Below are positions 6,266 through 61,010 of a stretch of DNA of 61,010 bases, in pieces; position 1 is the first letter of the stretch, and every line of letters begins with the position of its first letter. The position numbers were made by a program, and so were the translations under genes. The DNA is from a virus (Duplodnaviria; Caudoviricetes), in IMG/VR virus record IMGVR_UViG_3300008255_000145, positions 1 through 61,010 of that record; one strand, written 5' to 3'. The notes beneath the pieces are model-generated. The model was not told the origin of the DNA. It saw nothing but the letters and a program-made list of their open reading frames with translations, and did no database searches.

Positions 6266-6823
6266 TTATACCTGGTTTATATATGAGAAAATACCAGAAG
6301 ATTTATATTTATCGATTGCATCAATTATATCTTGTTCATCATAAGAACCAACAACTTCAATATAGATACCGTCTTTGACTGCTATAGGATAGCCATCCAA
6401 ATTGCCCAAGTCCGTGTAATTAGAGAATCTCTTAGATGTAGCCACAACAGTATTATTAACAAAATAATCACTAACTCCACCGCCTAATATATTCGTAAGA
6501 ATAAATATTCCCTCATTATCCAATACACCAACTATTCGCTCACCACTATCCTTTGTTGCTCTAGTAATAACATCAAAATTTAATAAACTAGTAGATATAA
6601 CAATCTTCTTAGTAATAGATTTTGTTATCATTCTATTAAGGTTTGAAAAATCTACATATGGCCTATGCACTACATGTATCTTTTTTAGTGCATTTAATAC
6701 ATCATCAACACCAATATTAATAAAATCAGATTGGTCCAATTTAACATTTTGATGATTAATAGATATTCTAAAATGTCTAAGTATATCTTTTATTCTAACT
6801 ATTTTTGTGTTTGTGTCAAGCAT
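6266..6823 (-). CDS. Hypothetical protein, baseplate region (185 aa)
   Basis: Tightly packed ORF in the late operon. Confidence 0.6.
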   Translation of the reverse strand: MLDTNTKIVRIKDILRHFRISINHQNVKLDQSDFINIGVDDVLNALKKIHVVHRPYVDFSNLNRMITKSITKKIVISTSLLNFDVITRATKDSGERIVGVLDNEGIFILTNILGGGVSDYFVNNTVVATSKRFSNYTDLGNLDGYPIAVKDGIYIEVVGSYDEQDIIDAIDKYKSSGIFSYINQV

Positions 6824-6825
6824 TT

Positions 6826-7557
6826 TTATACCTCAACTATAATATCTACTAAAACTAATTTAGATACGTCTACAGGGGCTAATGGATTTAAGTCAATTTT
6901 TGTACCCAATGGAAGAAATGATAACAATGGGACTGCATCGTATGATGTTATTTCGAATGTTAACTTATCGCCAGTAACGTAAATTAAGCCTAACATATCA
7001 TTTTTAGATGTGTATGCATCAAGAGCAACTACAGATTGCATGGGAAATTCCGGCACCTTAAACACAGATACTCCACCAGAGTATGAATATCTAGGCAATA
7101 CAGTAACACCATATGAAACAACCGGCCCAATACATACTACATTGGTGCCATCATAATAAAATAAATCATCAGCCATATCTATATTATGTATTCCATCGGC
7201 CCAATAACCTGAGTATTTCCATTCTCTTTTAATTCTTAATCTTAATGTACCATCTACTTCTACATGCTCAAAAGTTCTTAATTCAGGAACTAATAACATA
7301 TTAGGAACTAGCCCGTTCAAACTCTTAGTCGCTGTATTTTGTAGTATATGAACAGCATTTTTGGGGTAACTGTTGATAGTATGCGATATCGAAGAGTGAA
7401 CTCCTACTGGAATATATCCATCAATAGATTTGATGTTATAAATGATACCATCCCTTATATTTGAATCAGAATTATGAGATGATTCATCTAGAGTTGTTCC
7501 TTTTATATAATCTAATAAACTTGTATTAGCTAAATGATTTTCTCCGAATTTCCACAT
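6826..7557 (-). CDS. Hypothetical protein, baseplate region (243 aa)
   Basis: Start overlaps the upstream stop codon. Confidence 0.6.
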   Translation of the reverse strand: MWKFGENHLANTSLLDYIKGTTLDESSHNSDSNIRDGIIYNIKSIDGYIPVGVHSSISHTINSYPKNAVHILQNTATKSLNGLVPNMLLVPELRTFEHVEVDGTLRLRIKREWKYSGYWADGIHNIDMADDLFYYDGTNVVCIGPVVSYGVTVLPRYSYSGGVSVFKVPEFPMQSVVALDAYTSKNDMLGLIYVTGDKLTFEITSYDAVPLLSFLPLGTKIDLNPLAPVDVSKLVLVDIIVEV

Positions 7558-15200: not shown

Positions 15201-18200
15201 TTCCTTTCGTATTCTCTAGAATTTTTTTATTTCGTTTTTTTTGTATATCACGATATGCTGATGCATTTCCTATTCCCATATAGTTAGCGCCAGTTATCAG
15301 TGATTTAGATGTAGTTTGTTTTACTATATCTTGTTCTTTATTGGAATCTAGTGTTACTTCTTTATATTTATTTGCCTTATCGTTATTTTTACTATTCTTT
15401 ACCTTTTTAGTGGCTTCAATCTCTTTTTCATTTTGTTCTTTTTCTTTTGCACTAAACTCTGTTTGAATTACAACACTAGATAATATGTCGCTTAATCTTG
15501 TATCATCAAATTGTTCTTCGTATTTCTTTAATGCCTTATTATATTGCTCATTATTAAGAACCATATCATTATTGGTATTTTGTGTTTTAAAGTCATAATC
15601 ATGATATTTGCTTTCTTGATAAAAATAAAAATCAGGATTTAATGTTGGAGGCAAATAAAAGTCACTATATGCACTCTCGGTTATCTGATCTACAAAATCT
15701 AATGTAGTCAATCCTAGCTCATTGGGCTTTAACATAGCACCAAGGGACGGCCATGCTTTATATATCTTACCTAAATTAGCTTGGACACCCGACCATAATG
15801 CATCTCTGACATCAACTTTGATAACATCCTTACTTCTAAATACAGAAGATAAATCAATATCAACCTTTTTAACAGTACCAGTAAATTTACTTGTAACTAT
15901 TTTTGTTACACCATATTTATCAAAAAAACTATCCTTATCAGTTATATTTCCAACAGCACTTTCTAATCTTTTTAGCATATCGTCTATAACTGCTTTTCTT
16001 GTATTAGTTATATTTTGTGGGTAATTTATTACTGATATTTTATATTTAGCATTACCCTTGATCCCTTTAGTATATATTCCCGTTCCTACATTATTATATG
16101 ACACAAATCCTTCTATTTCATATGAAGCACTAAGTATTTCTAATTCTAGAGTAGTTCCAGTAAATATCTCATCTATGAATTTGTGAATAATATCACTATC
16201 GGTATATCTTTCTGTCATACTAAACATGTTACTAGTATAAAAATGAGTACGCATCTTAGTAATATTAGTTGCTTGTAATAACATAGCCTCACCGCCAGGA
16301 ATTTCAGGTATAGTTTCTATTCTACTTGAATCAACAGAGAAAAATACACCAGGAGCTATAGTATTAAGAAATGGGTCTTTAATAATAATACCATCCATTA
16401 ATGATAGATCTTTGTATTTAGAAAGATTATTATGTATTTTGTCTAATATTTGATTGAATTCTAAAATTGAAGATTTAGCTGATTCTAATTGTTCGTCAGC
16501 AGACACTATTTTAAGGGCAATAGTATCCTCGCGACCCCCTAGATACTGATGTGTAGCTAGTCTATGTCCCGCTAGTGGTACTCTAGGAATTGTAACATTT
16601 CCATTAACTTCATATGAATCTATAATAATATTTTTAACTACATGCTCATTATATGTTCGTAGATAGTATATTGCAGTGAATGCTATATCTGGAAATTCAA
16701 TATCATAACCCTTATTGGTTTCATCGCCATTGATTGGCGCATAGTCTACTTCTACAATTTCTTTTGATGACTTATTTAATAGTTCTTTTGGTATATCTAA
16801 TAAGAACAACTTTGCTTCATCAACTCTTCTTATTTTTAGTGCAGGAACAATATTGTGGTTAACATCTTTAAAATAGGATAGCATCTTATTAGCCGCACCT
16901 TGATAGTCGCCATCATTAATAAATGAAACAATACCATTAACATTAGATTCGCCCGCACCTCTATTATAGAAATGTGATATTAACGCATTAAACATATTCA
17001 TTGTTATTGGAGCTGATATACTGTTTTTAACTTGGTAGAATACCTCTTTCTGTATGTGAGTTAATACTTGAATTTCTGCTTCACCTCTTGTCATTGATAA
17101 TGTAGCTAATTGATATGCCTTATCAATATCTTCAGTTCTAAAAACTATTCCAGCAGCATTATTTTTGTCAGCTCTAATAGATGCCAATTCTTTAATGCTT
17201 AATAACTGTTTCCCTTTATTTAATACCTTTTGTACAGATGCCCGAGTTCCATGTCCAATAGAATAATGATCTACGTCTGGATAAGCAAATTCACTATATC
17301 CTTCCTTGTCGATAATAAATTTTAATATACTACCACTAAGTACAAACGGATTGGATGTACTTGGATTGCTTATATACCTTTTTACTGCTTCACTAATCTT
17401 TTCCGTTTGAAGATCTGTAGCTCTTTCTTTGAATTTATCAATCTTTTCATTTTCTGCTTTATAATATGTTTCATCATAAAATGCAACTTTTTGTACATCA
17501 CCTGCTTTTGGGTATCCTTTATTGGCTTCAATGGCCATAGCTTTTGCTGGGGACATTATGCCTTTTTTTTCAAACAAACCACTTAATCCATCTCTTTCTA
17601 TATCGTCATATGTAAATGATATTTCTTTAGGCTCATAAGTATAATATCCAAGAACAATACTATTGCTTGGTTTATTGTATATCTTATACCATTGAGATAT
17701 CGCATCATAAAGTTTATAATTTAATGCATGAAACTGATTGAATGCTTCAGACTTTTTAATGTCATATGTTAATCCTGGAGTTTTAAAATATCCACTATTG
17801 CCACGCTTAAATATAGTATTGTTACTAGATACATTCTCTTCACTTTTATAGTTAAATGTTTCATAGTTCTTAACATACTTTATTGAATCTGCATATGGTA
17901 GATAATTAAATAGTAATAGATTTAATGTAAGCCTAGTTGCTCTAGGGGTATTTTGATCCGGCATTATTGCATGACCATTATAGGTAAACATTAATTTATC
18001 CTTACTAAGAGATAGTGTATCATAGTTAATCTCTTTAAGTTTGGTTATTAAATGTTTTCTTAGGAATTCGTTCTCCATTTCAAAGAACGGCATATATGTT
18101 ATTTGAGTAAGAAGTGGCATCATTTTATTAATAATTTCATCTTCCATACTAGTTTGGAAATATGGATTGTCCGTAAATACCAAAGATAATTGTATTGCAA

Positions 18201-18522
18201 CTTCTGTATGGTTAGTATCTATTGATACAGTGTGTTGAGTTCTTAGATTGGGCATATTGATTTTACGTTCTGATATATTAATAGCTATGTTCTCAGGTGG
18301 TATTGTTAATAATATATCATTTATTCTAAGAAGGGAGTTGTCGCCCGATTCTCCATGCTTACGCATGATTTTATTGTCTGTTAATTCACTGTATGTTTTA
18401 TAGCTTTTATAGATGGTATTTGGAGTTTCATTTGGATCTAAATATCTATTTACACTATTTATCCAATAAGCCTCTAAGTCATACTTGTTAGTTAAACTTC
18501 CACCGTTTTGTACTTTATCCAT
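12211..18522 (-). CDS. Large baseplate hub / tail-associated lysin with GH24 lysozyme and EEP domains (~2100 aa)
   Basis: Likely start is the ATG at 18522 (TAATAATG coupling; the ORF track extends to 18543). Lysozyme motifs KEGYSEFAYPD..SIGHGT, FNALISHFYNRG, LKIRRVDEAKLF (~16800-17330). EEP motifs ATWNV, FNE, VHF, LGDFN, FDNI, SDH (~14400-15050). C-terminal hub-like region RVQFKAGYG..KFNGLI..CQSFG. Confidence 0.8.
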   Translation of the reverse strand: MDKVQNGGSLTNKYDLEAYWINSVNRYLDPNETPNTIYKSYKTYSELTDNKIMRKHGESGDNSLLRINDILLTIPPENIAINISERKINMPNLRTQHTVSIDTNHTEVAIQLSLVFTDNPYFQTSMEDEIINKMMPLLTQITYMPFFEMENEFLRKHLITKLKEINYDTLSLSKDKLMFTYNGHAIMPDQNTPRATRLTLNLLLFNYLPYADSIKYVKNYETFNYKSEENVSSNNTIFKRGNSGYFKTPGLTYDIKKSEAFNQFHALNYKLYDAISQWYKIYNKPSNSIVLGYYTYEPKEISFTYDDIERDGLSGLFEKKGIMSPAKAMAIEANKGYPKAGDVQKVAFYDETYYKAENEKIDKFKERATDLQTEKISEAVKRYISNPSTSNPFVLSGSILKFIIDKEGYSEFAYPDVDHYSIGHGTRASVQKVLNKGKQLLSIKELASIRADKNNAAGIVFRTEDIDKAYQLATLSMTRGEAEIQVLTHIQKEVFYQVKNSISAPITMNMFNALISHFYNRGAGESNVNGIVSFINDGDYQGAANKMLSYFKDVNHNIVPALKIRRVDEAKLFLLDIPKELLNKSSKEIVEVDYAPINGDETNKGYDIEFPDIAFTAIYYLRTYNEHVVKNIIIDSYEVNGNVTIPRVPLAGHRLATHQYLGGREDTIALKIVSADEQLESAKSSILEFNQILDKIHNNLSKYKDLSLMDGIIIKDPFLNTIAPGVFFSVDSSRIETIPEIPGGEAMLLQATNITKMRTHFYTSNMFSMTERYTDSDIIHKFIDEIFTGTTLELEILSASYEIEGFVSYNNVGTGIYTKGIKGNAKYKISVINYPQNITNTRKAVIDDMLKRLESAVGNITDKDSFFDKYGVTKIVTSKFTGTVKKVDIDLSSVFRSKDVIKVDVRDALWSGVQANLGKIYKAWPSLGAMLKPNELGLTTLDFVDQITESAYSDFYLPPTLNPDFYFYQESKYHDYDFKTQNTNNDMVLNNEQYNKALKKYEEQFDDTRLSDILSSVVIQTEFSAKEKEQNEKEIEATKKVKNSKNNDKANKYKEVTLDSNKEQDIVKQTTSKSLITGANYMGIGNASAYRDIQKKRNKKILENTKGILRHSKSAYNIALDDNKAAKDDDAINSATPGNNTNTSTKLEIDQLADSDSMIARIATWNVKFGTNPEDLLYAEELLLHNSIVVFNEIYNMNIDELDNGKFEIIKIEGSYGEYVTNEFKKWGTSMFIKNDSFESIEIEDPIKYHGNRDAIHAIVTTKSNKKISIVGVHFPSGQDVSNANFMLADIRNQIQLNFNSDLIIVLGDFNNVVASEYSGFSQAVVENTYYSSKNADTASFDNILISKGAYSTETYTETTSSDHKAITTAIIFGEKQELSEAEQLEIESKRKDSEVVGQYNIAIDNGVRDRLTLLNAFPAFKVYILEDDDEEMFAWMRHDLNEMFGLNAVAEIDFIEHADQPADLLMVKFIDVSKKFTSAKYRDKPKTEKKPTETLNTIAENRLTGIVLKPGTRVQFKAGYGNDVQELPTKFNGLIASVEGDGMQYEMQCQSFGVEAIYDVKNPNKNSDITDFNPGTWEILNWALAQPEMVHFGKWKLMSSSNLQMTDSKFGFGLGGLVFGEYGLAPDFKRIRADGRITDRLWVYTRSNADQNLFTPITEEFDRLSSQLAEHPLKFNDWFDQIFSDFDVNAKTPWEIIDEMTYRYPGYVAKVLPYEDRVTLYFGPPTGLYYNRAFTFRERLIAGATYFEGNDRLDLLTNLRNRTVRKFQKKWFVSSHKNLCYNRIRADYKDVYTRVVVNYGDSGDSVSLKLNQFLKAEEVRTKVLLAPNAPLEVTGHEAEITVNGKLTKISFGGAYDYGTAELWKQSKKLYKGTFGIIINSDIKPYDSIFLVDSSIGMGGNIEVKDHIINISQYSGMISSIVPSMSSHVSTAASMTMSDFEDIATSSYEINQVIENSTLTKEQIEAMSNKYNSNVLKALNSPRKAMAGAAGISIASSLIFGSMATGALIPFAGVFILTTALLISLRTTAFNMAKYTDSIYLRPLLMHGIPYMYGLDTYKMGTLAEFEADQLKMVYEAVDVIKYISSNTLNSILGIAKQKDADV

Positions 18523-18524
18523 TA

Positions 18525-21500
18525 TTAACCACCATAGTTCCAATTATTTTGTTTGTTATCGTCTTGCAATTCAGCTAAATACCTTGAATTGATTGAATTC
18601 GATTGATTGATTACATATTGAGATCCGCCACCTCCGACTGCACCTTGTACATCCCCTGCAGACATACCTGGACCTAATTCTCCAGTAAGGGCATATCTTG
18701 CACCACCAACTGCCTTACTAACTATTCCTGTTGGAGGATTAATACCATTCTCATATGTTCTTTTATTTTTTATTCTAGATTCTTCTCTAGCTTCTTGATT
18801 CTTTATATTATTGTCTGGACTTTGTAATAAAAATGCACCGGCTAATAATGCACTACCTGCAATAAGTAGTCCTTTGTTATCTTTTATCTTCTTAGTGATA
18901 TTCATTAAAGAATCACCTGAAGATATTGCAATCTCTCTCATTGCTCCTGTACTAGCTCTATTTCTTAATAATTGTTCGGCACCAGGTTCCATAATATTAT
19001 AGTCTTTTGGTAGGTTGCCAAGAAAGTTATGCAGCGTTGCCGCGCTATCTCTAGTAGTGGCTTTCTTTGTCATTAAATCTACAAGTATAGGATTCTCGGC
19101 ATAATACTTTCTACCGCCTTTAAGATAATTCTCTATTTCCATATCACTCATTTCTGCCATAATATCGTGACCCTCAAGATTTTTCATGGTAAGATGTTTC
19201 TTAAATAGATCTCTAGCTTCTTCTATATTATTTTTCTTAACATCAAATATATTATAAATTTCCTCTAACTGATCTTGTGCAATAGGACTCTTAGAACCAA
19301 TGGCTCTTTCAGGTAAAGTACTAACATAATGTTCCATAATAGCACTTTTAGTCGAAGCTTTAAAATGTTCTGAGTCTTGAAATACATCTCCTACATAAGG
19401 ATTAATAGATCTACTATATGGCATTGTCACATTATAAAATTCAGAAATACCCTGTTGAGACACGTTGGCTATTTGATTGGGCACAAGCCCTTTTGTCATA
19501 TTCTTAAATACATCACCACCTTTAAGACCCCCCTTATTTGATTCAGAAAAGAACTCTAATAATGGAGACTTATAATCTTTCCATTGCCTTGATGTAGCAA
19601 GTCTAGCCTCTTCTCTAGATATTGTAATAGCAGACCATGGATCTTTATCTTGATCTAGTAAACCTAAGAATTCCGTAATTTGATTAGCGGCCATCTTATC
19701 ATTCATTCCTGCTATCCATGTTCTATCATATTTATTAACGCCTGCTATTTTGTTTAGTTGGTCAGCCATATCTTCCATGTCTAACACTTTAGATACAGTA
19801 AATGATTCTGCGCCATAATAAGGAGCACGACCGCCTGCTTCAAATAGTCCCTTTTTAATTAACTTTTGTCTAGTTTGATTATTAAATTCAGACAATTGTT
19901 CTGAGGACAAATTGCTTATTCCAGTACTTTCTTTATAACTAGCAAGTTCTGTTTTATACATATCTGTATATGCTAATTTTTCATCTATAACAGCACTATT
20001 ATATCCAGTAAAGGATTTAGTTTTTAATTCCTCAATACTAACACCATATCTTTCTGCTAGCATACTTTGTACTTTGCCACCGTGTTTTTTATCAAGAGAT
20101 TCTAACATCTGTATATCAAATCCCTGAGGACCAACATATACTCTAGAAGAACTATTTGGATGTAAGTGATCTATTTTAAAGGCTGCTTGTTCTATAAGTC
20201 CAACAGCAAGATTTGCCCTCAATGCTTTATTGGCTAATATAGCTTCATGTTTTCCAGCTCTAAGGTTTTGTATAAAATCTTTATTAGCAGCATTATATTC
20301 GCCAAGAATATCTATAGAACCTTCAAGATCATATTGATTAGTTGCACTAGTATATTTACTATCAAATAAAGCTAATGGTATATTGCGATAATTATTACTT
20401 TGTCCACTACCAAGATCTATGTAAAATACAGTATCTTTTGCAACACTCTTATTTAATAATTTATTATCAAGACCTTGATTAGCCATATCAGTAGCACGTT
20501 TTCTGGCAGCGTCTACATCTCCACCAAAGAATATATTAATATCCTCGTCTACTAAGTTTTCTAATTTAAATCCATAAGATGGACCAGATATATTGTTTGC
20601 TATAACTGGTAATATCTGCTGAGTAACATTCTTAATAAAAGCAGTATTTGCTTCAGAGCCTATATTAAGTTCTTTAGCTGCGTCAATAAATCCAGCACTC
20701 ATTAATCTTCTTTTCTGTATATTATTAATAGATACTTGACCAATTCCTATGCCGTGATTTGCTTGAGTAGTATCTGCCGATATATATGATTCATATAAAT
20801 TTGCACCACCAAATATACTATCATTAATTGGCTTATTCATTCTTGCAAGAGGTTCATTTTTACGATGTGGCGGAGCCCCAGTAATAAGCAGTTCTAAATC
20901 CTTATCAAAACTATTATGGATTTTCATAATCTCTCTATACTGTCTATTATTTTGAGGGCCAGTAAGAATTTTAAACATTTGTTGTTCATTAATATTGTTG
21001 TTCATTCCATATATAGTTGCCGCAGCTGACATTTTAGTATTAACTATTCCAGCACCTTCAAGTTTGCCGAATGAACCCCAGAATTTGTTACTCTCAGCAA
21101 ATTTAAATATAGACTCTCCATGTATCCTAATGCCATCTTCTGTAGCTGTAATTCTTTTTATTATAGTATTAGAATTGATTTCACCTTTACTCATAGGATT
21201 GTAAGTTAAGGCTATCTTACCCTTTTTCCTTGTTAATCCAGACATTTGTATGCCTTTTAATGTCATGCCACCTGGTTTAGATACTCTGGCTGCAAAGTCT
21301 TTATATACTTGATCTCTGATACCTTCATTGCCTGCCTCACTCATCATGAGAGCTAATTTCCTAGCTGTTTTTCTTTTGCCTTTAACAGACATATATTTTC
21401 CACCACTAGATTGTAGCATGGCATCTGCTATCATTAGGTTGGCTTCATGAGTTAATGCAACTCCCTTACCTTTAAAGGATAGTTGTATATTTTTACTAGC

Positions 21501-52191: not shown

Positions 52192-53035
52192 TGTTTTTCC
52201 CTTTACTCATATCTTCTTTAATTTGGTCCATGATAGCTATCATTTTATTTACTCTTGCTGTTTTAGTATTATCTTCTTCAGAAGCACTTCCATAGTCTTT
52301 AATCGCACTTTTTGATTTTCGGGTTGCATTAAGCGATTCTAAAATTTTCATCCTTCTAGTCTTCATTTTTTCTTTTAATCCCCAAGCCCAATGTTCTACT
52401 TCTTCTTGTATAATAGTGCCATCGGCGGCAACACTCTCCTTAATTCCATATAATGATGCATTCTTAGGTTCTGCTAATACATTAGTAACTCTAGTTTCCA
52501 TAATAATAAGTTCACTTAACTCTTGTATTAACATAATCTCACTATGTTCATTAACATCTACATCAAACTCATTGATAAATCTAGTAGTATGATAATTTAA
52601 TAAATCAGCTTCAACAAGACATGGTTTCCCCAATGGTTCTTTTCCTAGTTCTACATAAGGACAATTTTTAGCGAATGGACATTCAGTACCTTGGCATGTC
52701 AAGGGAACCGCGGCATTTACTCCTGTACTCATTTTCTTATAAGACATCATTAACTTTCTAGCTTCTTCTTCTGTTAATACAATATCTCCATATTGTTCTA
52801 ACTTAGTAGATTCCATATTACTAAAGAATTCATTTCTAGTTAATATTCCTTCACTTGTTAATGATATACCTGTTATATCTGTTAATATAATAGTACCTGT
52901 TTCTGTACTTTTTTGTGGCGGGAGCTTTTCTCTTAATTCTTTATTTGTTTCTACTCCTTGCCTCTTTCTTTCTTGCTCTAGTAATTCTATAAAGTCATCT
53001 TTTTTAGAGTTTATATCTATTTCTGTATAGTCCAT
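52184..53035 (-). CDS. Cys-rich protein, possible terminase small subunit (283 aa)
   Basis: First gene of the late arm. CQGTECPFAKNCP..PCLVE followed by helices and ILESLNATRKSK, a TerS-like oligomerisation pattern. Confidence 0.4.
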   Translation of the reverse strand: MDYTEIDINSKKDDFIELLEQERKRQGVETNKELREKLPPQKSTETGTIILTDITGISLTSEGILTRNEFFSNMESTKLEQYGDIVLTEEEARKLMMSYKKMSTGVNAAVPLTCQGTECPFAKNCPYVELGKEPLGKPCLVEADLLNYHTTRFINEFDVDVNEHSEIMLIQELSELIIMETRVTNVLAEPKNASLYGIKESVAADGTIIQEEVEHWAWGLKEKMKTRRMKILESLNATRKSKSAIKDYGSASEEDNTKTARVNKMIAIMDQIKEDMSKGKNNE

Positions 53036-53881
53036 CTTACTTCATCTTTATTATTAGTATAGTTAATAATACTTATTATATATAACTATATCAATTATTA
53101 TTAAATATGTATGGGATTAAGATGTCTAAGAATGATAATAATAGAGGATAAGATGTGGCGTTTTTGGTTTAAAAATAGATTATGTGATAGGGAAAGAAAG
53201 TCCTTCGCCTTTTGTGTATCAAAATGAGACACTTCTATATGAGAGTAAATATATTTTTTTTTAAAAAAATGAGAATAAACGAGAATTGAGAGGATTTAGA
53301 GGAGATGGTTAGTGCCCCTACCCATCTGACAGTAGCAAATAGGACGCTTCTTCGTGTAACATGGATGTTCTAAATAAAAACACTCTTGCCAGGGATGTGA
53401 GGTAGTGTCACTATAATTGGTAGATACCTTGGATAAAATTCATTGCGAGCCCCTACCGGTTTGCGATTTGGCCAATCTTTAGTATTTATTATTGTATCCA
53501 TTATAATGATAAGGTTATATACTTAATAACATCATCCTTGAGATAGTGTAGTATAACCATTCTATATTATATGTGTGTAGCAAGCACATAGAGTGAAGTA
53601 GCGTATCATTCGTATAGGTGTATTTATACATTGACATAATTAATGTATTGCGTTTGTATATTAACAAGAAAAACATAATATACAGTCACATGTGAGTCTA
53701 TATGTAGACCATGTGGTTACCATTAATATAGAAAACACATAGCACCTGTGTTACAGAAGGTAGCTTGAGGAAGTAATGTCGCCGAGAAGTGCATAAGCAG
53801 GCAGAGAAGGACATAATGATACATATTGTACATAGGGCAGACTAGTGAGATACAGCTAGTATGTTATGTATGATATAGACA

Positions 53882-53948
53882 GTCATACTACAACAAGTGG
53901 CGTGTGCATGGTTCCACATGCAGATGGTTCGAATCCATGAGTATGACC
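53882..53948 (+). ncRNA. Degenerate tRNA-like element (Gly-TCC-like, non-canonical)
   Basis: Acceptor GTCATAC/GTATGAC, T8-A9, D-loop AAGTGGC, stem GCATG/CATGC with a 6-nt loop GTTCCA, T-arm ATGG-TTCGAAT-CCAT; no encoded CCA. Confidence 0.6.
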
Positions 53949-54143
53949 TATATATTGGCTTAATTGACGAAAACAAGCGGTGCTAACTGACGTGTCAGCC
54001 GCAAAACAAATAATAATTAAAATTAGTCCTTGAGGCGTGCATCAAGTATTATAGCCGCTGGTTACTAGCATCGGGTACAACCGAATAGCGTAATTATACC
54101 AGTGGAGGGAAAAAGATATATGTCGATAGGACGAGGAGACAAT

Positions 54144-54344
54144 ATGGCAGGATTCATCAGTTTAAAAAATAACGAAACCGAATATTTATTCGGAAAAAAT
54201 GGCTCAACATTTAAGTGGATAGGAAAAGAACTATTCCACATTTCAAATGATGAGTCATTTGAAAAAGTATACCTTGTGGGGGACAGGGTATATTTTAGAA
54301 GTGAAGGGGAAGAGACGTGGGAGGATTTAGATACTGATTACTAG
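54144..54344 (+). CDS. Small early hypothetical protein (66 aa)
   Basis: RBS GAGGAG precedes the ATG at 54144, in frame with track ORF 54102; followed by a terminator. Confidence 0.75.
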   Translation: MAGFISLKNNETEYLFGKNGSTFKWIGKELFHISNDESFEKVYLVGDRVYFRSEGEETWEDLDTDY

Positions 54345-54352
54345 TTTCATCA

Positions 54353-54378
54353 GGCCCCTCTTCGGAGGGGTCTTTATT
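54353..54378 (+). terminator. Intrinsic terminator with UUCG loop
   Basis: GGCCCCTC-TTCG-GAGGGGTC-TTTATT. Confidence 0.8.
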
Positions 54379-54380
54379 CA

Positions 54381-54440
54381 ACTCGTCTGAGCGAGTATAA
54401 ACAGATGATTAAGCTCAGAGCGTCCTTTTTAGGGGTCAAT
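54381..54440 (+). ncRNA. Pistol self-cleaving ribozyme
   Basis: P1 ACTCG/CGAGT; loop TCTGAG pairs with CTCAGA (6-bp pseudoknot); ATAAACAG linker; TTAAG; GCG; P3 TCCT/AGGG; GU cleavage dinucleotide at 54435-54436. P2 is weak. Confidence 0.82.
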
Positions 54441-54462
54441 TAAAAATTAAAAGGAGAAACTT

Positions 54463-55029
54463 ATGAAACTAAAGTTATTAAGACTCCTATTTATCTTAGC
54501 GACGTTCATTGTCGGAGTAATAGGAAGGCAGTATCGTTTCCTATGGCTATATTATTATATAGCCGGTTCCGGCAAGGAACGTATAATGCCAAGAAGGTAT
54601 TTGGATCCACGGATGATGGCTAAGGCAAGGAGAAACTCTCGCCGAAAAGTCACCACGAATAGTGGTTTCAAATATCTTCTCCACCATACATTGGAGTATG
54701 ACGGCTCGGGCTTTTGGGGTCGTCCTACCGCCTTTTATATGGTGGGGTGTATGACATACGATATCTCTTTTAAGGGAAACCGTGTGATTGTCAGCGGCAC
54801 AGATGGCAACTTTCATACATCTGCACTACATGTCAGGATTGTAAAACCATTGGCAAAGATATTTGGAAGTGAGTACTTTCAGGTATCTGGCTTCCCAATG
54901 GGTAGTCCTGGCATTTCAAATAAGTTGTGGATGGATTTTGAGGCAGTTGGCGCAAAGCCATTCACAACCGTCATTCATGAAGAATTTACTTCTCATGAAT
55001 GGCGAAAGATAAATAGGAGGGTGTTTTAA
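54463..55029 (+). CDS. Early hypothetical protein with N-terminal hydrophobic helix (188 aa)
   Basis: RBS AAAGGAG; N-terminal LLRLLFILATFIVGVIG. Confidence 0.75.
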   Translation: MKLKLLRLLFILATFIVGVIGRQYRFLWLYYYIAGSGKERIMPRRYLDPRMMAKARRNSRRKVTTNSGFKYLLHHTLEYDGSGFWGRPTAFYMVGCMTYDISFKGNRVIVSGTDGNFHTSALHVRIVKPLAKIFGSEYFQVSGFPMGSPGISNKLWMDFEAVGAKPFTTVIHEEFTSHEWRKINRRVF

Positions 55030-55322
55030 TCACCAAGCTCGGTGGTTGTCCGAGCATAAATTGACAACAAATGCAGTGCTTCAAAGGAAGAGTTCGGTAC
55101 TGCTATTGGCGTATGCCTTTTACCCGAATAGGCTGAGCTCGTGTGTTGTAACACTTAATTTGCAAGGCAGCTTAACAAATCAATATACCATTAAAGTATA
55201 TGTTGTTGATGACTGAATAACTGCAAACCAATAGGCTGTTGTTACTGCGATAAGAGAAATTCGTATACACATGTGGCTGTGAGGCTGGCGTTTTGTGATG
55301 TCGTTTAAATAATCGCGATTTA

Positions 55323-55368
55323 CCACTACAGCGAGAAGGATATTCAGGTTTCGAGACCTGTGTAGTGG
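55323..55368 (+). ncRNA. tRNA minihelix-like element (acceptor plus T-arm only)
   Basis: CCACTACA/TGTAGTGG 8 bp stacked on CAGGT-TTCGAG-ACCTG. A 14-nt linker replaces the D and anticodon arms. Confidence 0.5.
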
Positions 55369-55397
55369 CTATTTATTAATTAGATAAAAGGGGATAA

Positions 55398-55781
55398 ATG
55401 TTTCACGTATCACCAACGCCAAATATAGACGTTCTTCTGCCATTCAGTTCGGCAGAAGATATAATAGATGGAGAAATCGTTTGGGACGATGACTCTAAAA
55501 ATATATTTAAAAAATGTGTCTCATTTGGGAAAACTGTAATTGGATGCCTTATGGATGTTCCAATGAATAGCGGATATATATATATCCCAGATGAAGATAT
55601 AAAAGAATGTGAAATTAGACATTTCTGGAAAGAAGCGTCAGAATTGCATATCCTAAGCTTGTTCTCAAAGGAAGTTAGAATATACAGACCTGTAAAGGTT
55701 CTGTGTATAGGAACTTTCAATGTGGAACATATATTCGCCACAGATGGATATCGTAGGCGATATAAAATAAATATTTATTAA
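55398..55781 (+). CDS. Early hypothetical protein (127 aa)
   Basis: RBS AAGGGG. MFHVSP..VSF..CL..EV pattern is loosely reminiscent of phage ADP-ribosyltransferase-like folds (function weak). Confidence 0.7.
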   Translation: MFHVSPTPNIDVLLPFSSAEDIIDGEIVWDDDSKNIFKKCVSFGKTVIGCLMDVPMNSGYIYIPDEDIKECEIRHFWKEASELHILSLFSKEVRIYRPVKVLCIGTFNVEHIFATDGYRRRYKINIY

Positions 55782-55833
55782 TTAAACCCATTTAATATGG
55801 GAATTTATTCTTTTATCTTCTTAAGGAGGAGAT

Positions 55834-55962
55834 ATGTTAGAAGATTTAATCGTAGAAAGTAATAACGAAGAGCTAAATATGGCTCTTCGTTGTGCTATAT
55901 CTGATATGGAGCTATCTATGTCTGATATAGAATTCGGTATTATGATGGATATTACCGAATAG
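55834..55962 (+). CDS. Small acidic protein (42 aa, MLEDLIVESNNEELNMALRCAISDMELSMSDIEFGIMMDITE)
   Basis: Strong RBS AAGGAGGAG; below the ORF-track length cutoff. Confidence 0.65.
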   Translation: MLEDLIVESNNEELNMALRCAISDMELSMSDIEFGIMMDITE

Positions 55963-56001
55963 TAACAGACTGGCACTCACTATAATGGTGAGTGTTAATG
56001 T
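55963..56001 (+). repeat. 39-nt near-copy of 59434-59472 (5' half of a twister; P4/L4 missing)
   Basis: TAACAGA(C/G)TGGCACTCACTAT(A/G)ATGGTGAGTGTTAATGT, 2 mismatches. Confidence 0.9.
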
Positions 56002-56113
56002 CTGAGAAAAAAGGAGAATCTACTAGCCTTTAAGTAGTAGAAAAAATAAATACTATACAAAGTGTCAAGATGTTCCTTTTAAGGTCAATCGGCTAAGTAT
56101 AGAAGGAGATATT

Positions 56114-56341
56114 ATGAAAATTAAATTATTTGCACGTTTTAATCGTATAGATGGCGTGCTTGATATTCGTCCAGAAGACGGGCAACTGATTTGGAGACGT
56201 GGCAATGGTGACATTGTTACTCTCAGGAAATCAGATGTTGCGGGATTATATTCATTTTTCCCAAAACCTTCAGATGCTAAAAAATTCATCGAAAAGAATT
56301 TCGATGATAACGGTATCTATTCCTGTGCCACAACGCATTGA
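56114..56341 (+). CDS. Early hypothetical protein (75 aa)
   Basis: RBS GAAGGAG. Confidence 0.7.
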   Translation: MKIKLFARFNRIDGVLDIRPEDGQLIWRRGNGDIVTLRKSDVAGLYSFFPKPSDAKKFIEKNFDDNGIYSCATTH

Positions 56342-56351
56342 GGGAGGAGAT

Positions 56352-56543
56352 ATGTTAAACAGTAAAATATACACTATTACTATCAACATAATCAAGACGA
56401 TTGTGTTGATAGTAATAAGCATAGCAGTACTCTATGCTATGGTGGTCCGTAGTATAGAACTATGGGAAACAGATCCAATCCCAGTACTTATAGTAGTGGC
56501 ATTGGCTGTAACGCTATTACTATCACTAGTGATAGTAGAGTGA
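56352..56543 (+). CDS. Small two-helix membrane protein (63 aa)
   Basis: RBS GGAGGAG before the ATG at 56352, in frame with track ORF 56199; two hydrophobic segments. Confidence 0.7.
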   Translation: MLNSKIYTITINIIKTIVLIVISIAVLYAMVVRSIELWETDPIPVLIVVALAVTLLLSLVIVE

Positions 56544-56608
56544 CAGATGGCACCCCAACGTCGTGAGATGCGGGGCAGTAATGTGCGGCGTCAGATCCAA
56601 AGTTCTGA
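56543..56608 (+). ncRNA. Twister self-cleaving ribozyme (permuted form, P1 closed by a hairpin)
   Basis: ACA-GATGG-[P1 CACCCC..GGGGCAG]-TAA-TGT-GC..P4 TCAGA/TCTGA with 8-nt loop TCCAAAGT. TGG pairs with CCA. Predicted cut between 56579 and 56580. P1 base is imperfect. Confidence 0.7.
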
Positions 56609-56732
56609 GCGGTAGTACGTATTTTAAGTTAATCAATAAATAGGGAATGTACCCTAGTAGCCGTAGTATATGGTGGCTATAAGAAAAAGTTCATATACAG
56701 TGATTGGTGTCTACTAAGTGACATAACAGAGC

Positions 56733-56763
56733 CTTATTGTCAAAATGACAATAGGATTTTTAT
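56733..56763 (+). terminator. Terminator-like hairpin just upstream of the polymerase gene
   Basis: CTTATTGTCA-AAA-TGACAATAGG then ATTTTTAT; the stem is AT-rich. Confidence 0.45.
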
Positions 56764-56790
56764 CAACCCATAAAATAATGGAGATTTATT

Positions 56791-59436
56791 ATGGGACAAA
56801 AAACATTTAACTTCTTGATGGATCAAGAAGCTAGCACTTTCATAAGTGCTAATTTGTTGTGGGTTCGATTAGGAGACAGAAGATTAGAAGTCTCCTTCGA
56901 ATCGGATAATGAGATAATAGTGCCAATAGAGGCACATATAGTCTCTTACAATAGAATTAGACCAATTCCAATTATGGGACAAAAGTCTCGTATATTGAAA
57001 TTGGTATCTATTCTGAAAGGTGCCGATGGCGATCCTTTCCAGTTGGCTAAATCGATAGCCGATTTTAATATGGCAGAACAGGAGATCCACTTCTTTGTTC
57101 CTGCCAAAAATGGCAGGAATTTAAAGTTTGTGGGACAAAAGACAATGTTCCGTCAATCTGGGTACCTAACCCAGAATGAAAAAGTCTGTCAAATAATGAT
57201 ACCCCAAGAGGGGGTGGTGGAAGCAATAAACAATGAGTCAGTAAGCTATGACTCATTAATGGAGTCTTTTAGACCTATGAGTATGGGCAAAAAAGACTGG
57301 CTTATTGGTATAAAGGTTATACCAATATTGTCTAATATGTACAATAAAGAATTCTTTTATCTTGGTGGAAGCCCAGATAAAGGACTATGTGTAGTTACAC
57401 ACAACAATAAAATCATTAAGAACACAAAGAGGAAATCCTCTCAGAAAATAGGTAAAATCCTATTGGCTGGGGGGATCCCATTTTCATTTGGGGAGCTCAG
57501 TTTTGTTGCAATTGAGTTCCCAAAAGCTATAGATGGTGTTTATGCCATCGTATCAGAAAAAGAGATGGAGATTGCAACAGCTGCCAACGCCTTGCATGGC
57601 AGACATTTACAGTCTCGCTCTTTGGGGTTTGGGTTAAAGGGCACTATTGCCACCCCAGAAACAAATATATTAAAAAATGTCTTGGGCAACTATAATGCCG
57701 TAATAGACATCAAAGAACTCAATTCTACGTATAACCTAAACTATAAGTTAGGTAATACTGTAGAATTAACAGACCTTATAATACTGTCTACAGATATGGA
57801 TAGTAATATAAGAGATTCCAAAGTGAATATGCAGGCACTAAGTCGTGCAGGCATATCTCAGACTAAATTATTATACCATTTTATAGATAATATTGATGAG
57901 AAAGATCCCCTCAAAATCATACCATCATTTGGTATTTCAAAAATGTTTAATTCTATTGGACATATAGTCCAGTGGGATGATACCCAAAATGGTTATCAAA
58001 AAATGGTAAGTTTGATTCAATCAAACTTAGAGTATTGGAAGTTAAATACTCTAAGAAAAGGAATCACTGTTCCTGGAGGGTATTTGTATAATCTCCCCTC
58101 CAATGTGCCGTTTGATGGCGCATTATTATCTAATGAGTTTATGATTAAGCATAATCTCACTATTGGTGATTATATTACAGTGCTGATAGCTCCAGCATTG
58201 TTTCCTGATAGAGAAGGTAAATCTCCATTCGTCTTCTCTAAAAGAATAGTTGGCAAATTGAAATCACGGTCCATATCGATCTCAATGAAGTCCAATGAAT
58301 ACGGACTGAGAGACTATGATGGTGACAAACTTGTAGTCCTGTCAGGCAGACATGCACTGGACCAAGGTGTATGTAATTTCGACTCTCTTAAAGTGGGGAC
58401 ACCAGCCGAACTTGAGTTACAATATGACTCGATATCGGCTGCTCAGGTCTTCTGTAACGCCAATAGTCTAGTTGGTGTCGCGGATGACACTGCGGGGTCT
58501 ATGTATTTATATGGACTTAATGACACTGAGTATTTAGGTGCATGCATCCAGGCGCCGGTATACTCCATGAAACATACAATTCGTAAGGGCTACGAATTGG
58601 AAGACTTATTGAAATATGGCAAGGAAGCTATACCAAAGGCATTTAATGGCAAAGGTAAGCTAATAAAGCATCCTGATCTGATATGTAGAAAGGAATCAGA
58701 TACTTTTAATGAAGCATTCAAAATGCAATCAAAAGTATCTAGCTACTTGGCAGACATCTTAGAACTGCTTAATGATGTCACGATTGATAAGTTTAATGTC
58801 ATTGAGTTTAAAGATATGATGTTATTATGTGACACATATCTAAATGAGGTTGAAGATGACGTCCTTGATGACTTAAAGGATTTAAGTAATCAAATATGGT
58901 CTATGGCATTCTCAAAATTGCCAGATGACGATAATGAAACCGACTTCAATATAGTTACGTCGGTTATTGGTGGTATAAGAGCAAGGATAACGCAAGAATT
59001 TGGTCCAGAATTCTTGCGTCAATTGGTCGCACTAATGATTGCAACCAATAAAACTGGAAAAATATACTATCCACTATTACTAGGACAAGATGTCCTACGA
59101 AAAGTAATAGATGGAAAGGTGGCGAAACATATCGACTATAGCGTTGGTATGGCGAATGAAGTTATAAACAATGGTGAATTAATCACTGTTGATATTTGGA
59201 GATCCAGAGTCAATAAGGACGATGTCAAAGAAGTTAGCTGTTCTACAGTTGAGTTTGAAGTTGATGATGTCGTATATGTAGTAGACGGCTTATTGAGACC
59301 CATTAATATGGTTCCCGCTAACATTAATGGTACACTCCAAGATGGAGAGTATAGGATTGTTGCCAGTAGGCCGAGATGGAACAAAACTGGGGAAGTTATA
59401 GGAACCGGGATAACCCTCACTCTTAGAAGAGTTTAA
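56791..59436 (+). CDS. YonO-like / cellular-RdRP-like single-subunit two-barrel RNA polymerase (881 aa)
   Basis: ID248GVYAIVSE, Q274SRSLGFGLK283G (cf. RdRP Q.R..G.KG), IAPALFP (cf. R.P.LHP) and catalytic RD508YDGD512KLVV, in the expected order; RBS GGAG. Confidence 0.82.
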   Translation: MGQKTFNFLMDQEASTFISANLLWVRLGDRRLEVSFESDNEIIVPIEAHIVSYNRIRPIPIMGQKSRILKLVSILKGADGDPFQLAKSIADFNMAEQEIHFFVPAKNGRNLKFVGQKTMFRQSGYLTQNEKVCQIMIPQEGVVEAINNESVSYDSLMESFRPMSMGKKDWLIGIKVIPILSNMYNKEFFYLGGSPDKGLCVVTHNNKIIKNTKRKSSQKIGKILLAGGIPFSFGELSFVAIEFPKAIDGVYAIVSEKEMEIATAANALHGRHLQSRSLGFGLKGTIATPETNILKNVLGNYNAVIDIKELNSTYNLNYKLGNTVELTDLIILSTDMDSNIRDSKVNMQALSRAGISQTKLLYHFIDNIDEKDPLKIIPSFGISKMFNSIGHIVQWDDTQNGYQKMVSLIQSNLEYWKLNTLRKGITVPGGYLYNLPSNVPFDGALLSNEFMIKHNLTIGDYITVLIAPALFPDREGKSPFVFSKRIVGKLKSRSISISMKSNEYGLRDYDGDKLVVLSGRHALDQGVCNFDSLKVGTPAELELQYDSISAAQVFCNANSLVGVADDTAGSMYLYGLNDTEYLGACIQAPVYSMKHTIRKGYELEDLLKYGKEAIPKAFNGKGKLIKHPDLICRKESDTFNEAFKMQSKVSSYLADILELLNDVTIDKFNVIEFKDMMLLCDTYLNEVEDDVLDDLKDLSNQIWSMAFSKLPDDDNETDFNIVTSVIGGIRARITQEFGPEFLRQLVALMIATNKTGKIYYPLLLGQDVLRKVIDGKVAKHIDYSVGMANEVINNGELITVDIWRSRVNKDDVKEVSCSTVEFEVDDVVYVVDGLLRPINMVPANINGTLQDGEYRIVASRPRWNKTGEVIGTGITLTLRRV

Positions 59437-59497
59437 CAGAGTGGCACTCACTATGATGGTGAGTGTTAATGTGCCGTCGCATGGTCACAAGTCCATG
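59436..59497 (+). ncRNA. Twister self-cleaving ribozyme abutting the polymerase stop codon
   Basis: ACA-GAGTG-[P1 GCACTCACTA/TGGTGAGTGT]-TAA-TGT-GC..P4 CATGG/CCATG with loop TCACAAGT. GTG pairs with CAC. Predicted cut between 59467 and 59468. Confidence 0.8.
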
Positions 59498-59533
59498 GTA
59501 GTAGTACATCCAATAATGTCTGAGGAGGATATT

Positions 59534-59887
59534 ATGTTATATGTATTATTAATTAGTTTTATTTGTTTTGCAATAGTTGTCATTTTAGTGGTCCACTATT
59601 GTCTCCCAAAGAGGGTGAGCATTTATACCTATAATGGAAAACTACACGCCTATAATACAGTGTGGTTTGATAATGGATATGGTGGAGGCTGCTACGATGA
59701 CAAAGTATATGCAAAGGGAAGAAATATTATTGAATTATATTTTAATGTTACGTTGTATAGACTGGTAAATAGAATGGGAGGGCATTTTTCAAGTGCCACT
59801 AAGATTTGGTGGTACGAGCATCTGTTAGATACAGAATGTAAGATGTTTGAGTTATTAGCAAATGTAATAAAAACATCTATAGATTGA
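59534..59887 (+). CDS. Hypothetical protein with N-terminal membrane anchor (117 aa)
   Basis: RBS GAGGAGG before the ATG at 59534. The track's longer version would run through the ribozyme. Confidence 0.7.
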   Translation: MLYVLLISFICFAIVVILVVHYCLPKRVSIYTYNGKLHAYNTVWFDNGYGGGCYDDKVYAKGRNIIELYFNVTLYRLVNRMGGHFSSATKIWWYEHLLDTECKMFELLANVIKTSID

Positions 59888-59979
59888 GACTCCGCTCCGC
59901 CCCCTCGCTCTGCTCGGCCCTACGGGTAAAGGGCTCCGCAAAGGATGATATGTATTGTATTTAATAAGTAATATGGATT

Positions 59980-60089
59980 GGCTGTTGATTGCTTAATTGC
60001 AATGCAGATATGTGATAAAATATCTGTACTAATTGGAAATGGTGAAGTGTCTCCACACGATTGCTTGGGTTCGAATCCCAGGACAGCCA
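59980..60089 (+). ncRNA. Enlarged tRNA-like element
   Basis: 7-bp acceptor GGCTGTT/GACAGCC plus A; 5-bp T-stem with TTCGAAT; D-stem TTGC/GCAA; 8-bp anticodon-like stem with 8-nt loop GTGATAAA; 37-nt extra arm; followed by a T-run. Confidence 0.65.
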
Positions 60090-60117
60090 CTCTTTTTTTT
60101 ATAATTATGGAGGTTAA

Positions 60118-60519
60118 GTGAGAATTAGTAAAAACATAGACTTAAGATGTAATATTAATAATGGCGCTAATAGGATCTACTATGCTGTTGATTTATATTG
60201 TACTATATTTAGTCTTGTTGTTTCTTTAGTTTTTTGGAGACTAGATAAGGATATGCCGCCTTTTCTTGCCTATGTAACATTAGATGGATATGAAATACTA
60301 AACAAGAATGAAACTATGTTTAGTATTATAACTATGTTTGCTATAATAATTGATATTGCCAATCGCACATATGAGGTAGGATGGTTTAGTTTTACTCCGT
60401 TTTGGGAGGGTAGCAATATCCTCTTGGTGAGTAGCGTTGTTTCAATTGCAATGACTATCATTATGTGTATAATGTGGCTTATAAAGTTTAATAGTTATAT
60501 GAAAAATACAAAAGATTGA
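60118..60519 (+). CDS. Hypothetical membrane protein (133 aa)
   Basis: GGAGG RBS with GTG start; three hydrophobic segments. Confidence 0.65.
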   Translation: MRISKNIDLRCNINNGANRIYYAVDLYCTIFSLVVSLVFWRLDKDMPPFLAYVTLDGYEILNKNETMFSIITMFAIIIDIANRTYEVGWFSFTPFWEGSNILLVSSVVSIAMTIIMCIMWLIKFNSYMKNTKD

Positions 60520-60578
60520 GAAGACGAAGAAAGATATCGCGGCCACATTCCACTAATTAAATAATGTAGTTAATACAT

Positions 60579-60770
60579 ATGAAATCACAAATTGTAAAAA
60601 TGCCAGAGGCTAGAGACCTCAGGGCATTAAAACGGTTAGAATTAGCTCCCTATATATACTCTAGGGAAGCACGTCAAAGTATACCTGAAAAGGAATACGA
60701 ACGACTTAAAAGATTAAGAGTTAGTAAAATTAAACGTCAATTTAACATTAATGAAGGAGTTGTTGTATGA
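60579..60770 (+). CDS. Small basic hypothetical protein (63 aa)
   Basis: Coupled to the next ORF by ATGA; weak RBS. Confidence 0.5.
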   Translation: MKSQIVKMPEARDLRALKRLELAPYIYSREARQSIPEKEYERLKRLRVSKIKRQFNINEGVVV

Positions 60771-60967
60771 TTTATCCAATTAAACAGATGATTGTAAAAA
60801 AAATAGCTACTAATACTAAGAATATTAGAGATAGTATAGTGTCTGAATTTAATATGAGAAAATCTGCCGCAAATGATGCTATACGCGTTGTTCGTAAGCA
60901 GTTAGGATTGTACCGGAAAAACTCCGGTAAACATTTAATAGCAAAAACAAAAAAGGAGTCAGCATGA
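60767..60967 (+). CDS. Small basic hypothetical protein (66 aa)
   Basis: RBS GAAGGAG; ATGA overlaps at both ends. Confidence 0.65.
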   Translation: MIYPIKQMIVKKIATNTKNIRDSIVSEFNMRKSAANDAIRVVRKQLGLYRKNSGKHLIAKTKKESA

Positions 60968-61010
60968 CAATCTTAGATTATCTAGTTAAAAACCTTGAGT
61001 TCGTCCCTGG
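60964..61010 (+). CDS. Start of a further ORF (MTILDYLVKNLEFVP..), truncated by the window edge
   Basis: RBS AAAGGAG and ATGA overlap. Confidence 0.6.
   Translation, partial: MTILDYLVKNLEFVP

Follow-up and report, generated by a model that had tools for sequence, protein, structure and literature searches.

Ribozyme clusters near phage-related genes were reportedly described by Weinberg et al. in 2015. Phage transcripts can also be divided by protein enzymes, as in T7, whose early polycistronic RNA is cut in its gaps by RNase III, leaving 3′ hairpins that stabilize the messages; in mitochondria, transcripts are punctuated by tRNAs. According to the cited parts of the ribozyme literature, pistol, twister, hammerhead, and hatchet ribozymes occur near phage genes and near each other, which is how the pistol was discovered (PMC4604425, PMC4604424), and it has been suggested, not demonstrated, that hammerhead and twister ribozymes of bacteria process polycistronic RNA (PMC6765202). 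The purpose of small self-cleaving ribozymes in bacteria and phages is described as a still open question in the excerpted account (PMC6765202). Theta ribozymes, which resemble that of hepatitis delta virus (HDV-like), adjoin tRNA genes of gut phages in the portion of the work cited here (PMC10879173).

We analyzed a linear virus record of 61,010 bases (IMG/VR record IMGVR_UViG_3300008255_000145) in its entirety, hereafter the window. CheckV places its completeness at ~31%, so that ~69% of the genome lies outside the record. Between the genes of its plus-strand arm, one of which encodes an RNA polymerase, lie a pistol ribozyme, three twister-type elements, and tRNA-like elements, all in the sense orientation. 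A sequence-only reading of this DNA had proposed that a long early RNA is cut by such elements into mono- or bicistronic units. Based on our analysis of the window and of one distant relative, the best reading of the locus is that polycistronic RNA is processed in cis, a reading to which we would give an even chance.

The elements are confined to one of two divergent arms. Minus-strand genes cover positions 1-53035 and include PHROG matches to terminase, portal, major head protein, and tail sheath, which identifies this region as the structural arm of a large myovirus that is uncultivated. The plus-strand arm extends from ~53.7 kb to the end of the record, where it is open, and contains about a dozen small open reading frames (ORFs) along with the gene for a two-barrel single-subunit RNA polymerase. 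From 54120 on there are a dozen ORFs, every one with a Shine-Dalgarno site. Judging by this layout, the plus-strand arm is presumably the early one. When the whole window was scanned with Rfam at default gathering thresholds, the pistol was the sole match. Sensitive filters were then applied to 53000-61010 and 1-53900, with the result that the pistol and a type-P5 twister passed threshold in the plus-strand arm and nothing did in 1-53900, in agreement with the earlier statement that the 53-kb late arm is free of such elements. Specifically, all matches in 1-53900 at E ≤ 1 were below threshold, namely a mitochondrial transfer-messenger RNA model (31.1 bits versus 65) and GIR1 (22.9 versus 100). 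If the four threshold-passing ribozymes of both phages were scattered at random by length, the chance that all would fall within the two arms (7.3 of 61 kb in the window and ~13 of 177 kb in the relative) is near 1e-4 by our own arithmetic. The order and strand of every element and gene listed for the arm were correct in the ORF map. The description of elements in most intergenic gaps holds in that 7 of the 10 gaps between plus-strand ORFs contain a claimed element, but it was overstated, as only two of these reach a curated threshold.

The pistol predicted at 54381 was borne out (RF02679; 54381-54436, plus strand), with 53.4 bits against a gathering score of 34.5 and an E value of 6.1e-7 over the whole window. 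It occupies the gap between ORF1 (54120-54344, plus strand; 74 amino acids from ATG, with a GGAGGG site upstream) and ORF2 (54463-55029, plus strand; 188 amino acids), for neither of which was a family match found in Pfam or PHROG. The Rfam alignment includes the P1 hairpin, the AUAAA linker, the pseudoknot-forming loop, the GAGCGU block, the P3 hairpin, and the G-U cut dinucleotide; upper-case consensus positions are matched throughout as far as GGU, and P3 is short, at 4 base pairs (bp). Cut sites are given as G53-U54 in the pistol and U-A in the twister in the cited section of PMC6154101. By this convention, cleavage of the pistol is predicted between G54435 and U54436, which is 27 nucleotides (nt) ahead of the ATG of ORF2. 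The predicted downstream piece would carry a 27-nt leader starting just ahead of an AAGGAG Shine-Dalgarno site, and because the cut site is near the 3′ end of the ribozyme, the predicted upstream product would end in a hairpin plus the ribozyme. That hairpin (54352-54373, plus strand), which is directly 5′ of the pistol, is GC rich, with 9 bp, a UUCG loop, and a U-rich tail. It is terminator-like and folds at −16.9 kcal/mol (z = −3.89 relative to shuffled sequences, 0 of 200 being as good). A hairpin directly precedes all three of the pistols known from the two phages, with z scores of −1.44 and −4.14 for the two copies in the relative, and two of the three have a U-rich tail and resemble intrinsic terminators.

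Each of the three twister-type elements either begins at the stop codon of the preceding ORF or overlaps it (TAG at 55960, TGA at 56541, and TAA at 59434). The element placed at 59436 is a type-P5 twister (RF02684; 59435-59496, plus strand) that overlaps the stop codon of the polymerase gene and scores 41.8 bits against a gathering score of 37.6, detected with the sensitive filters only and missed by the default scan. Its P2, P1, and P4 helices are present together with the T1 and T2 pseudoknots, all 13 of the P2/T1/T2/P4 pairs are standard, and a UAA between P1 and P2 carries the U-A cut site, with cleavage predicted between U59467 and A59468. The twister suggested at 56543 (56542-56607, plus strand), which overlaps the stop codon of ORF6, is below the Rfam threshold (9.7 bits, E = 8, in a 121-nt scan) but retains shared blocks and core pairs. 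It has ACAGA, UAAUGUGC, and UCnnAAGU in common with the 59435 copy, both copies have the same P2 strands, and in a register set by hand 13 of 13 P2/T1/T2/P4 pairs are standard in both. Between the two paralogs, 6 of the 13 core pairs are changed on both sides (two of three in T1 and four of five in P4), and this compensation points to selection on the twister fold. We read the 56542 element as a diverged paralog that is probably still selected for its fold, and we consider it somewhat likelier to be active than not; its predicted cut falls between U56579 and A56580.

The remaining twister-type element, which had been called a remnant, is indeed one. It begins right after the stop codon of ORF4 (55963-56005, plus strand) and is a direct repeat of 59434-59472 that extends over 39 nt at 95% identity. 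The repeat, 55963-56001, corresponds to the P2/P1 half with the UAA cut-site loop, and it is without the P4 hairpin, T1, or a pseudoknot partner. A downstream hairpin loop, AGCCUUUA, offers no partner for the L1 of this copy. The half-copy forms a very stable long hairpin (z = −5.60), and from the parts that it has lost we take it to be dead. A hybrid twister, in which the half-copy or the polymerase-flanking twisters would complement each other in trans, was considered and rejected because of a mismatch in T1 (GUG with CCA).

The tRNA-like elements reported at 53882 and 59980 have real T-arm/acceptor modules but are not tRNAs by either ARAGORN or Rfam. Element 1 (53882-53948, plus strand) has the T arm GGTTCGAATCC at 53926-53936 and an 8-bp acceptor-like helix (53882-53889 with 53940-53947), while its anticodon arm is replaced by a hairpin of 6 bp with a 6-nt loop (fold z = −1.75). 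Element 2 (59979-60101, plus strand) has the four arms of a cloverleaf over ~112 nt: its T arm is canonical (GGTTCGAATCC at 60068-60078), its acceptor helix has 7-8 bp, and its anticodon-like arm has 8 bp and an 8-nt loop. Its fold, at −40.5 kcal/mol (z = −4.55), was equaled by 0 of 200 shuffles, and the element is followed by a run of nine U, with 18 nt to the ribosome-binding site of ORF9. CCA follows neither element. Across the whole window, ARAGORN called 0 tRNAs and, when relaxed, returned noise (5 calls at ps85 and 30 at ps80) from which the elements were not separable. The Rfam tRNA model (RF00005) gave 14.7 bits versus a cutoff of 29 for 59980-60089 and no match at 53882, even in a 111-nt scan. 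Nevertheless, the exact T-arm word GGTTCGAATCC is found twice in 61 kb, both times on the plus strand and in the plus-strand arm, and an 8-bp acceptor-like closure, made by the strand immediately after the word and a segment further upstream, is present at both copies compared with 3.3% of random positions. A T-loop pattern, GTTC[GA]ANTC, has four matches in the window, the relative's locus L002, and locus L005, all four on the coding strand of the arm and in gaps. These observations indicate that the elements at 53882 and 59979 are not tRNAs, yet not chance.

Both elements have the minimal shape of an RNase P or RNase Z substrate, that is, a canonical 7-nt T loop stacked on a 7- to 8-bp acceptor helix. 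According to the part of the literature cited here, RNase P also cleaves RNAs other than tRNAs, among them phage RNAs and mRNAs (PMC11143913). The T-arm/acceptor 25-mers of the two elements had 0 exact matches among one genome each of 185,579 species, which argues against a recent copy of a host tRNA or of an attachment site (attP). For the gap at 55037-55368, pseudoknots and a minihelix had also been described. The pseudoknots are unsupported, as the 368-nt gap is no better folded than shuffles (z = −1.26), and the stems that can be drawn by eye compete for the same bases. The possible minihelix (55323-55368, plus strand), with an 8-bp stem stacked on a 5- to 6-bp hairpin and a UUCGAG loop, is weak (z = −1.67, 13 of 200 shuffles as good), and its T-loop word is not exact. 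The arm thus contains two tRNA mimics, perhaps three.

The polymerase gene of the arm (56791-59436, plus strand) encodes a protein of 881 amino acids with a DxDGD motif at D508-D512. It had been annotated as an RNA polymerase, and motif and structure agree that it is one of the two-barrel kind. No Pfam, PHROG, or PDB sequence match was found for it, and an exhaustive HMMER search recovered 20 proteins including the query itself; all 13 aligned sequences share D508, D510, G511, and D512. An AlphaFold2 model (predicted local distance difference test score of 78.5) had as its top Foldseek matches QDE-1, RDR2, phage P74 gp62, P32 gp64, P23-45 gp96, and the virion polymerase of crAss-like phage phi14:2, the first five with a probability of 1.00, E values of 6e-13 to 2e-6, and template modeling scores of ~0.2-0.43. 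In addition, the sequence profile of the polymerase matches the P23-45 gp96 chains (E = 0.0013). The predicted structure identifies the protein as a two-barrel (QDE-1/YonO-like, DxDGD) single-subunit RNA polymerase. A T7-like polymerase was rejected, given the lack of a Pfam, PHROG, or PDB sequence match and the Foldseek matches to two-barrel enzymes. As a separate observation, QDE-1 and RDR2, which are cellular RNA-dependent RNA polymerases, rank above the phage two-barrel enzymes in Foldseek.

One distant relative was available for comparison. This is locus L002, from a 176,723-base IMG/VR contig (G001; CheckV 79%), in which the polymerase is 26% identical and the portal is 44% identical, its spacing from the arm being similar. 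As in the window, the arms diverge and the plus arm carries the polymerase. The homologous arm has two pistols in the sense orientation, at 6478-6539 (57.7 bits) and 13004-13065 (61.4 bits), and these are the only pistol matches in the whole contig; no type-P5 twister was found anywhere in it. Both of these pistols have a regular P2. A tRNA-like element at 15821-15888 scores 34.4 bits and is rejected by ARAGORN, its anticodon arm being stunted, and one good tRNA of the contig (62.3 bits) is outside the arm. Nothing further was found in the last 2.6 kb of the relative's arm, and tblastn between the ORFs of both arms returned no similarity except for the polymerase. Because the elements recur while genes, ribozyme class, and positions differ, they appear to serve the RNA of the arm and not any one gene, and this recurrence is the strongest argument for such a role.

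The relative's arm also contains a 57-nt three-stem motif with conserved GCUAGGG ... GAAAnCCGCUCAA. Its five copies (L002 12787-12843, 13170-13226, 14469-14526, 14983-15039, and 16511-16567) account for 5 of 5 matches in the contig. Among these copies, 12 of 16 pairs are compensated, and each copy ends ~15-25 nt ahead of a ribosome-binding site. The motif has no Rfam match and is not present in the window (best 15.6 bits, E = 0.18). With a loose DNA pattern, 120 loci were reported from IMG/VR, and of the 80 that were screened with the motif model, one had true copies: an unrelated 59-kb phage (L037) with copies before genes at 6896-6951 and 7797-7853 and with neither the polymerase nor a pistol. 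It may be that the 57-nt motif acts as a leader, a processing element, or a ribozyme of a new type. Two other structures were noticed in the same arm. At ~14390-14465, in the gap right before a copy of the 57-nt motif, there is a stem-enclosed three-way structure with a T-loop-like GUUCGACUC hairpin. Furthermore, a second repeated hairpin, GGGAGC ... GGUUARCGAAAUAACUUC ... GCUCCC, occurs at ~12970-13003, inside an ORF and ending exactly at the start of the second pistol, and at ~16463-16497, in a gap ahead of a copy of the 57-nt motif.

How might these elements act? If RNA is processed in cis, multi-gene transcripts would cut themselves at G54435/U54436, U56579/A56580, and U59467/A59468. The upstream message would acquire a 3′ end consisting of a stable hairpin with a 2′,3′-cyclic phosphate, the hairpin being P1 (8 bp) in the case of the twisters and the one just 5′ of the ribozyme in the case of the pistol. 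The downstream message would start with a 5′-hydroxyl ahead of its ribosome-binding site and, after a twister cut, would have the P4 hairpin at its head. Ends of these types, 5′-hydroxyl and cyclic phosphate, slow the usual routes of RNA decay. In this way the cistrons, above all the polymerase gene, would become separate RNAs whose stability and translation are independent of their neighbors and of host RNases. The CCA-less tRNA mimics would have the same effect through cuts by host RNase P at the 5′ side and RNase Z at the 3′ side. Cleavage, a polycistronic RNA, the effect on stability, and the action of RNase P and RNase Z are all inferred. At one site the arrangement of the DNA speaks to read-through: the ribosome-binding site of ORF9 lies a mere 18 nt beyond element 2, so this gene would have to be read from RNA that crosses the element.

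Several observations, however, weigh against processing in cis. First, the transcription signals of the arm suggest several shorter units, in which case some of the ribozymes would see little read-through. The plus strand contains four hairpins that resemble terminators (54352-54373, 55787-55801, 56733-56755, and 60060-60101), the last being the T-arm/acceptor module of element 2 with its nine U. The third (56733-56755, plus strand) is a 10-bp hairpin then AUUUUUAUC, 36 nt ahead of the polymerase start codon (z = −3.54). Furthermore, a 21-nt promoter-like repeat, AAGAAAAAnnTnATATACAGT, with the pattern AAGAAAAANNTNATATACAGT, is found exactly at only two places, both on the plus strand: 53666-53686, where the two arms diverge, and 56681-56701, 90 nt ahead of the polymerase gene. 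Each copy thus precedes a block of genes. Shuffled sequences contain a mean of 0.45 matches to AAGAAAAANNTNATATACAGT at up to three mismatches. This repeat is a promoter or operator candidate and may mark a second promoter at 56681; matches to sigma-70-like promoters were uninformative, with 30 found and 33.7 expected. Second, parts of the elements depart from the ideal. In the pistol, canonical pairing fails for the 3′ strand of P2, with four P2 columns marked as nonpairing or deleted, and the alternative, a shifted AU-rich helix of 4-5 bp, was read by eye only; in this respect it is unlike the two copies in the relative. Besides its score of 9.7 bits, the 56542 element has an irregular P1, MAFFT favors a 1-nt deletion in its L1, and its pairing with the 59435 twister was compared in a register chosen by hand. 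The 55963 copy is without half of the ribozyme, so elements of this kind also duplicate and decay, and both tRNA mimics fail both tRNA detectors. Third, the comparison rests on one relative, and neither the class nor the position of the ribozymes is conserved between the two phages.

The proposal of a long early RNA cut into mono- or bicistronic units is thus favored by sense-strand, intergenic, arm-confined elements and by their recurrence in the relative, but the single long transcript is called into question by the signals of several units. Most likely, a small number of transcription units overlap and have leaky stops, and ribozymes trim and separate their RNAs. If the phage's own polymerase makes these RNAs, it may ignore such hairpins.

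One alternative is that the elements are passengers, in which case ribozymes and tRNA fragments would spread and decay along with small genes of fast turnover, in the manner of known gene cassettes associated with ribozymes, each gene would have its own promoter and terminator, and any cleavage would be without a role in the program of the phage. The terminator-like hairpins in four gaps fit this view, as do the 95% identity of the truncated twister copy to the live one, hence a recent duplication, the small ORFs that are not common to the relative, and the differences in ribozyme class and position between the relatives. Previous work, as far as the cited passages go, likewise associates ribozymes with phage genes without assigning a function (PMC4604425, PMC6765202). 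Yet passengers would not be expected to keep so strictly to one strand and to the gaps, as every element does, or to show compensatory changes between twister paralogs. The confinement of the elements to the homologous arm in both phages, with polymerases that are only 26% identical, is also difficult to reconcile with this view, and the 18 nt between element 2 and the ribosome-binding site of ORF9 leave no space for a separate promoter. We therefore consider passengers unlikely, though this is the alternative that survives best.

The tRNA-like elements could have a different history from the ribozymes. They may be decayed phage tRNA genes, remnants of attachment sites, or decoys and binding sites for tRNA-directed factors of host or phage, for instance anticodon nucleases or enzymes of modification or repair. 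We regard this explanation as slightly less probable still. Genes for tRNAs are carried by large phages, and the relative has one good tRNA outside its arm and encodes an RtcB RNA-repair ligase (160614-161621; PF01139, 213.9 bits, in an open frame of 379 amino acids); moreover, the anticodon arms of all three elements are malformed. However, the acceptor and T arms are intact and the anticodon arms lost in independent elements with differing stems, all of them are sense oriented and in the gaps of one arm, and the absence of exact 25-mer matches among one genome each of 185,579 species speaks against recent copies of a host tRNA or of attP.

RtcB joins 2′,3′-cyclic-phosphate and 5′-hydroxyl ends, the types left by ribozymes. 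The notion that ribozyme ends are substrates for this ligase, such that the twister-flanked polymerase message (56580-59467) or other pieces are rejoined or circularized, draws on the twister-type elements on both sides of the polymerase ORF, the identical P2 strands in both twisters, and the RtcB of the relative, but it is very improbable, as phage RtcB is usually read as a tRNA repair enzyme, the gene in the relative is ~150 kb from the arm, there is no RtcB in the window (~31% of the genome), and the T1 strands of one twister cannot pair with those of the other, so that the ends would not be held by a hybrid ribozyme. No RNA ligase of family PF09414 was found in either record. A bolder version, which we hold to be a long shot, is that of a self-punctuating operon in which RNA elements (ribozymes, mimics, and the 57-nt motif of the relative) define the borders of the cistrons almost entirely and the ends are rejoined or circularized by phage RtcB. 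If true, it would be a natural counterpart of engineered circular RNA systems that combine twisters with RtcB.

The other genes of the arm are ORF3 (55398-55781), ORF4 (55834-55962), ORF5 (56114-56341), ORF6 (56352-56543), ORF8 (59534-59887; 117 amino acids), and ORF9 to ORF12 (60118-61010), all on the plus strand, and the arm continues past the end of the record. Right after the stop codon of ORF8, at 59888-59925, there is a C-rich, G-poor stretch that folds worse than shuffles (z = +1.76), and as a mere guess it is reminiscent of a Rho loading site. In the structural arm, a protein of 2,110 amino acids (12211-18543, minus strand) has endolysin-like PHROG matches in its C-terminal third and is flanked by ORFs of 1,403 and 1,175 amino acids; these are putative giant virion or ejection proteins. 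Searches for further relatives yielded little. There was no match to the window DNA among GenBank phages and no tblastn match to the polymerase among phages. Scans of IMG/VR with the polymerase and two of its homologs returned none, and a profile scan recovered L002 only. A search with a neighboring gene of 594 amino acids and two scans of Joint Genome Institute (JGI) metagenomes were likewise negative for relatives.

The locus matters as a compact test case, with three twister-type elements and a pistol, and with specified predicted cut sites, around one recognizable gene, a phage RNA polymerase. Furthermore, it has built-in comparisons, as the live twister can be set against its diverged paralog and its dead half-copy, and a distant relative has the same layout and uses pistols. 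If the cuts occur, the phage would set the boundaries of its messages and the chemistry of their ends without host RNases, and if the proposed role of the tRNA mimics is true, tRNA punctuation would reach phage messages as well.

Ribozyme clusters near phage genes were already known, and what is new here is the polymerase-arm setting, the stop-abutting twisters, the module of a pistol with a hairpin, and the tRNA mimics. As in the known clusters, the pistol and twister are within a few kilobases of each other, in noncoding gaps of phage genes whose function is unknown. The known clusters also have no assigned role, with RNA processing put forward as a suggestion (PMC6765202). Unlike those clusters, the setting is a defined one, the arm of one myovirus around a two-barrel RNA polymerase gene; twisters abut stop codons, pistols are preceded by hairpins, and tRNA mimics occupy neighboring gaps; and the association recurs in a relative whose arm has only the polymerase in common. 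In our literature searches, nothing closer was encountered on the punctuation of phage messages by ribozymes plus tRNA-like elements, the nearest case, going by the sections cited, being the theta ribozymes (PMC10879173). There, too, small self-cleaving ribozymes are found alongside tRNA-shaped RNAs in phage genomes. In that system, as the cited sections present it, the ribozymes are beside real, often suppressor, tRNAs with a link to recoding, whereas here pistols and twisters accompany nondecoding elements that flank protein genes.

The comparison with T7 that had been drawn for this arm stands as a functional parallel only, as the polymerase is not T7-like. In T7, RNase III sites are substrates of a protein enzyme, whereas here at least two or three cuts are predicted to be made by the RNA itself. 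With respect to mitochondrial punctuation, the likeness consists of tRNA-shaped modules between cistrons that are possible targets of RNase P and RNase Z. The arm differs from mitochondrial transcripts in that a convincing mimic is present in only 2 of 10 gaps and does not abut the ORFs.

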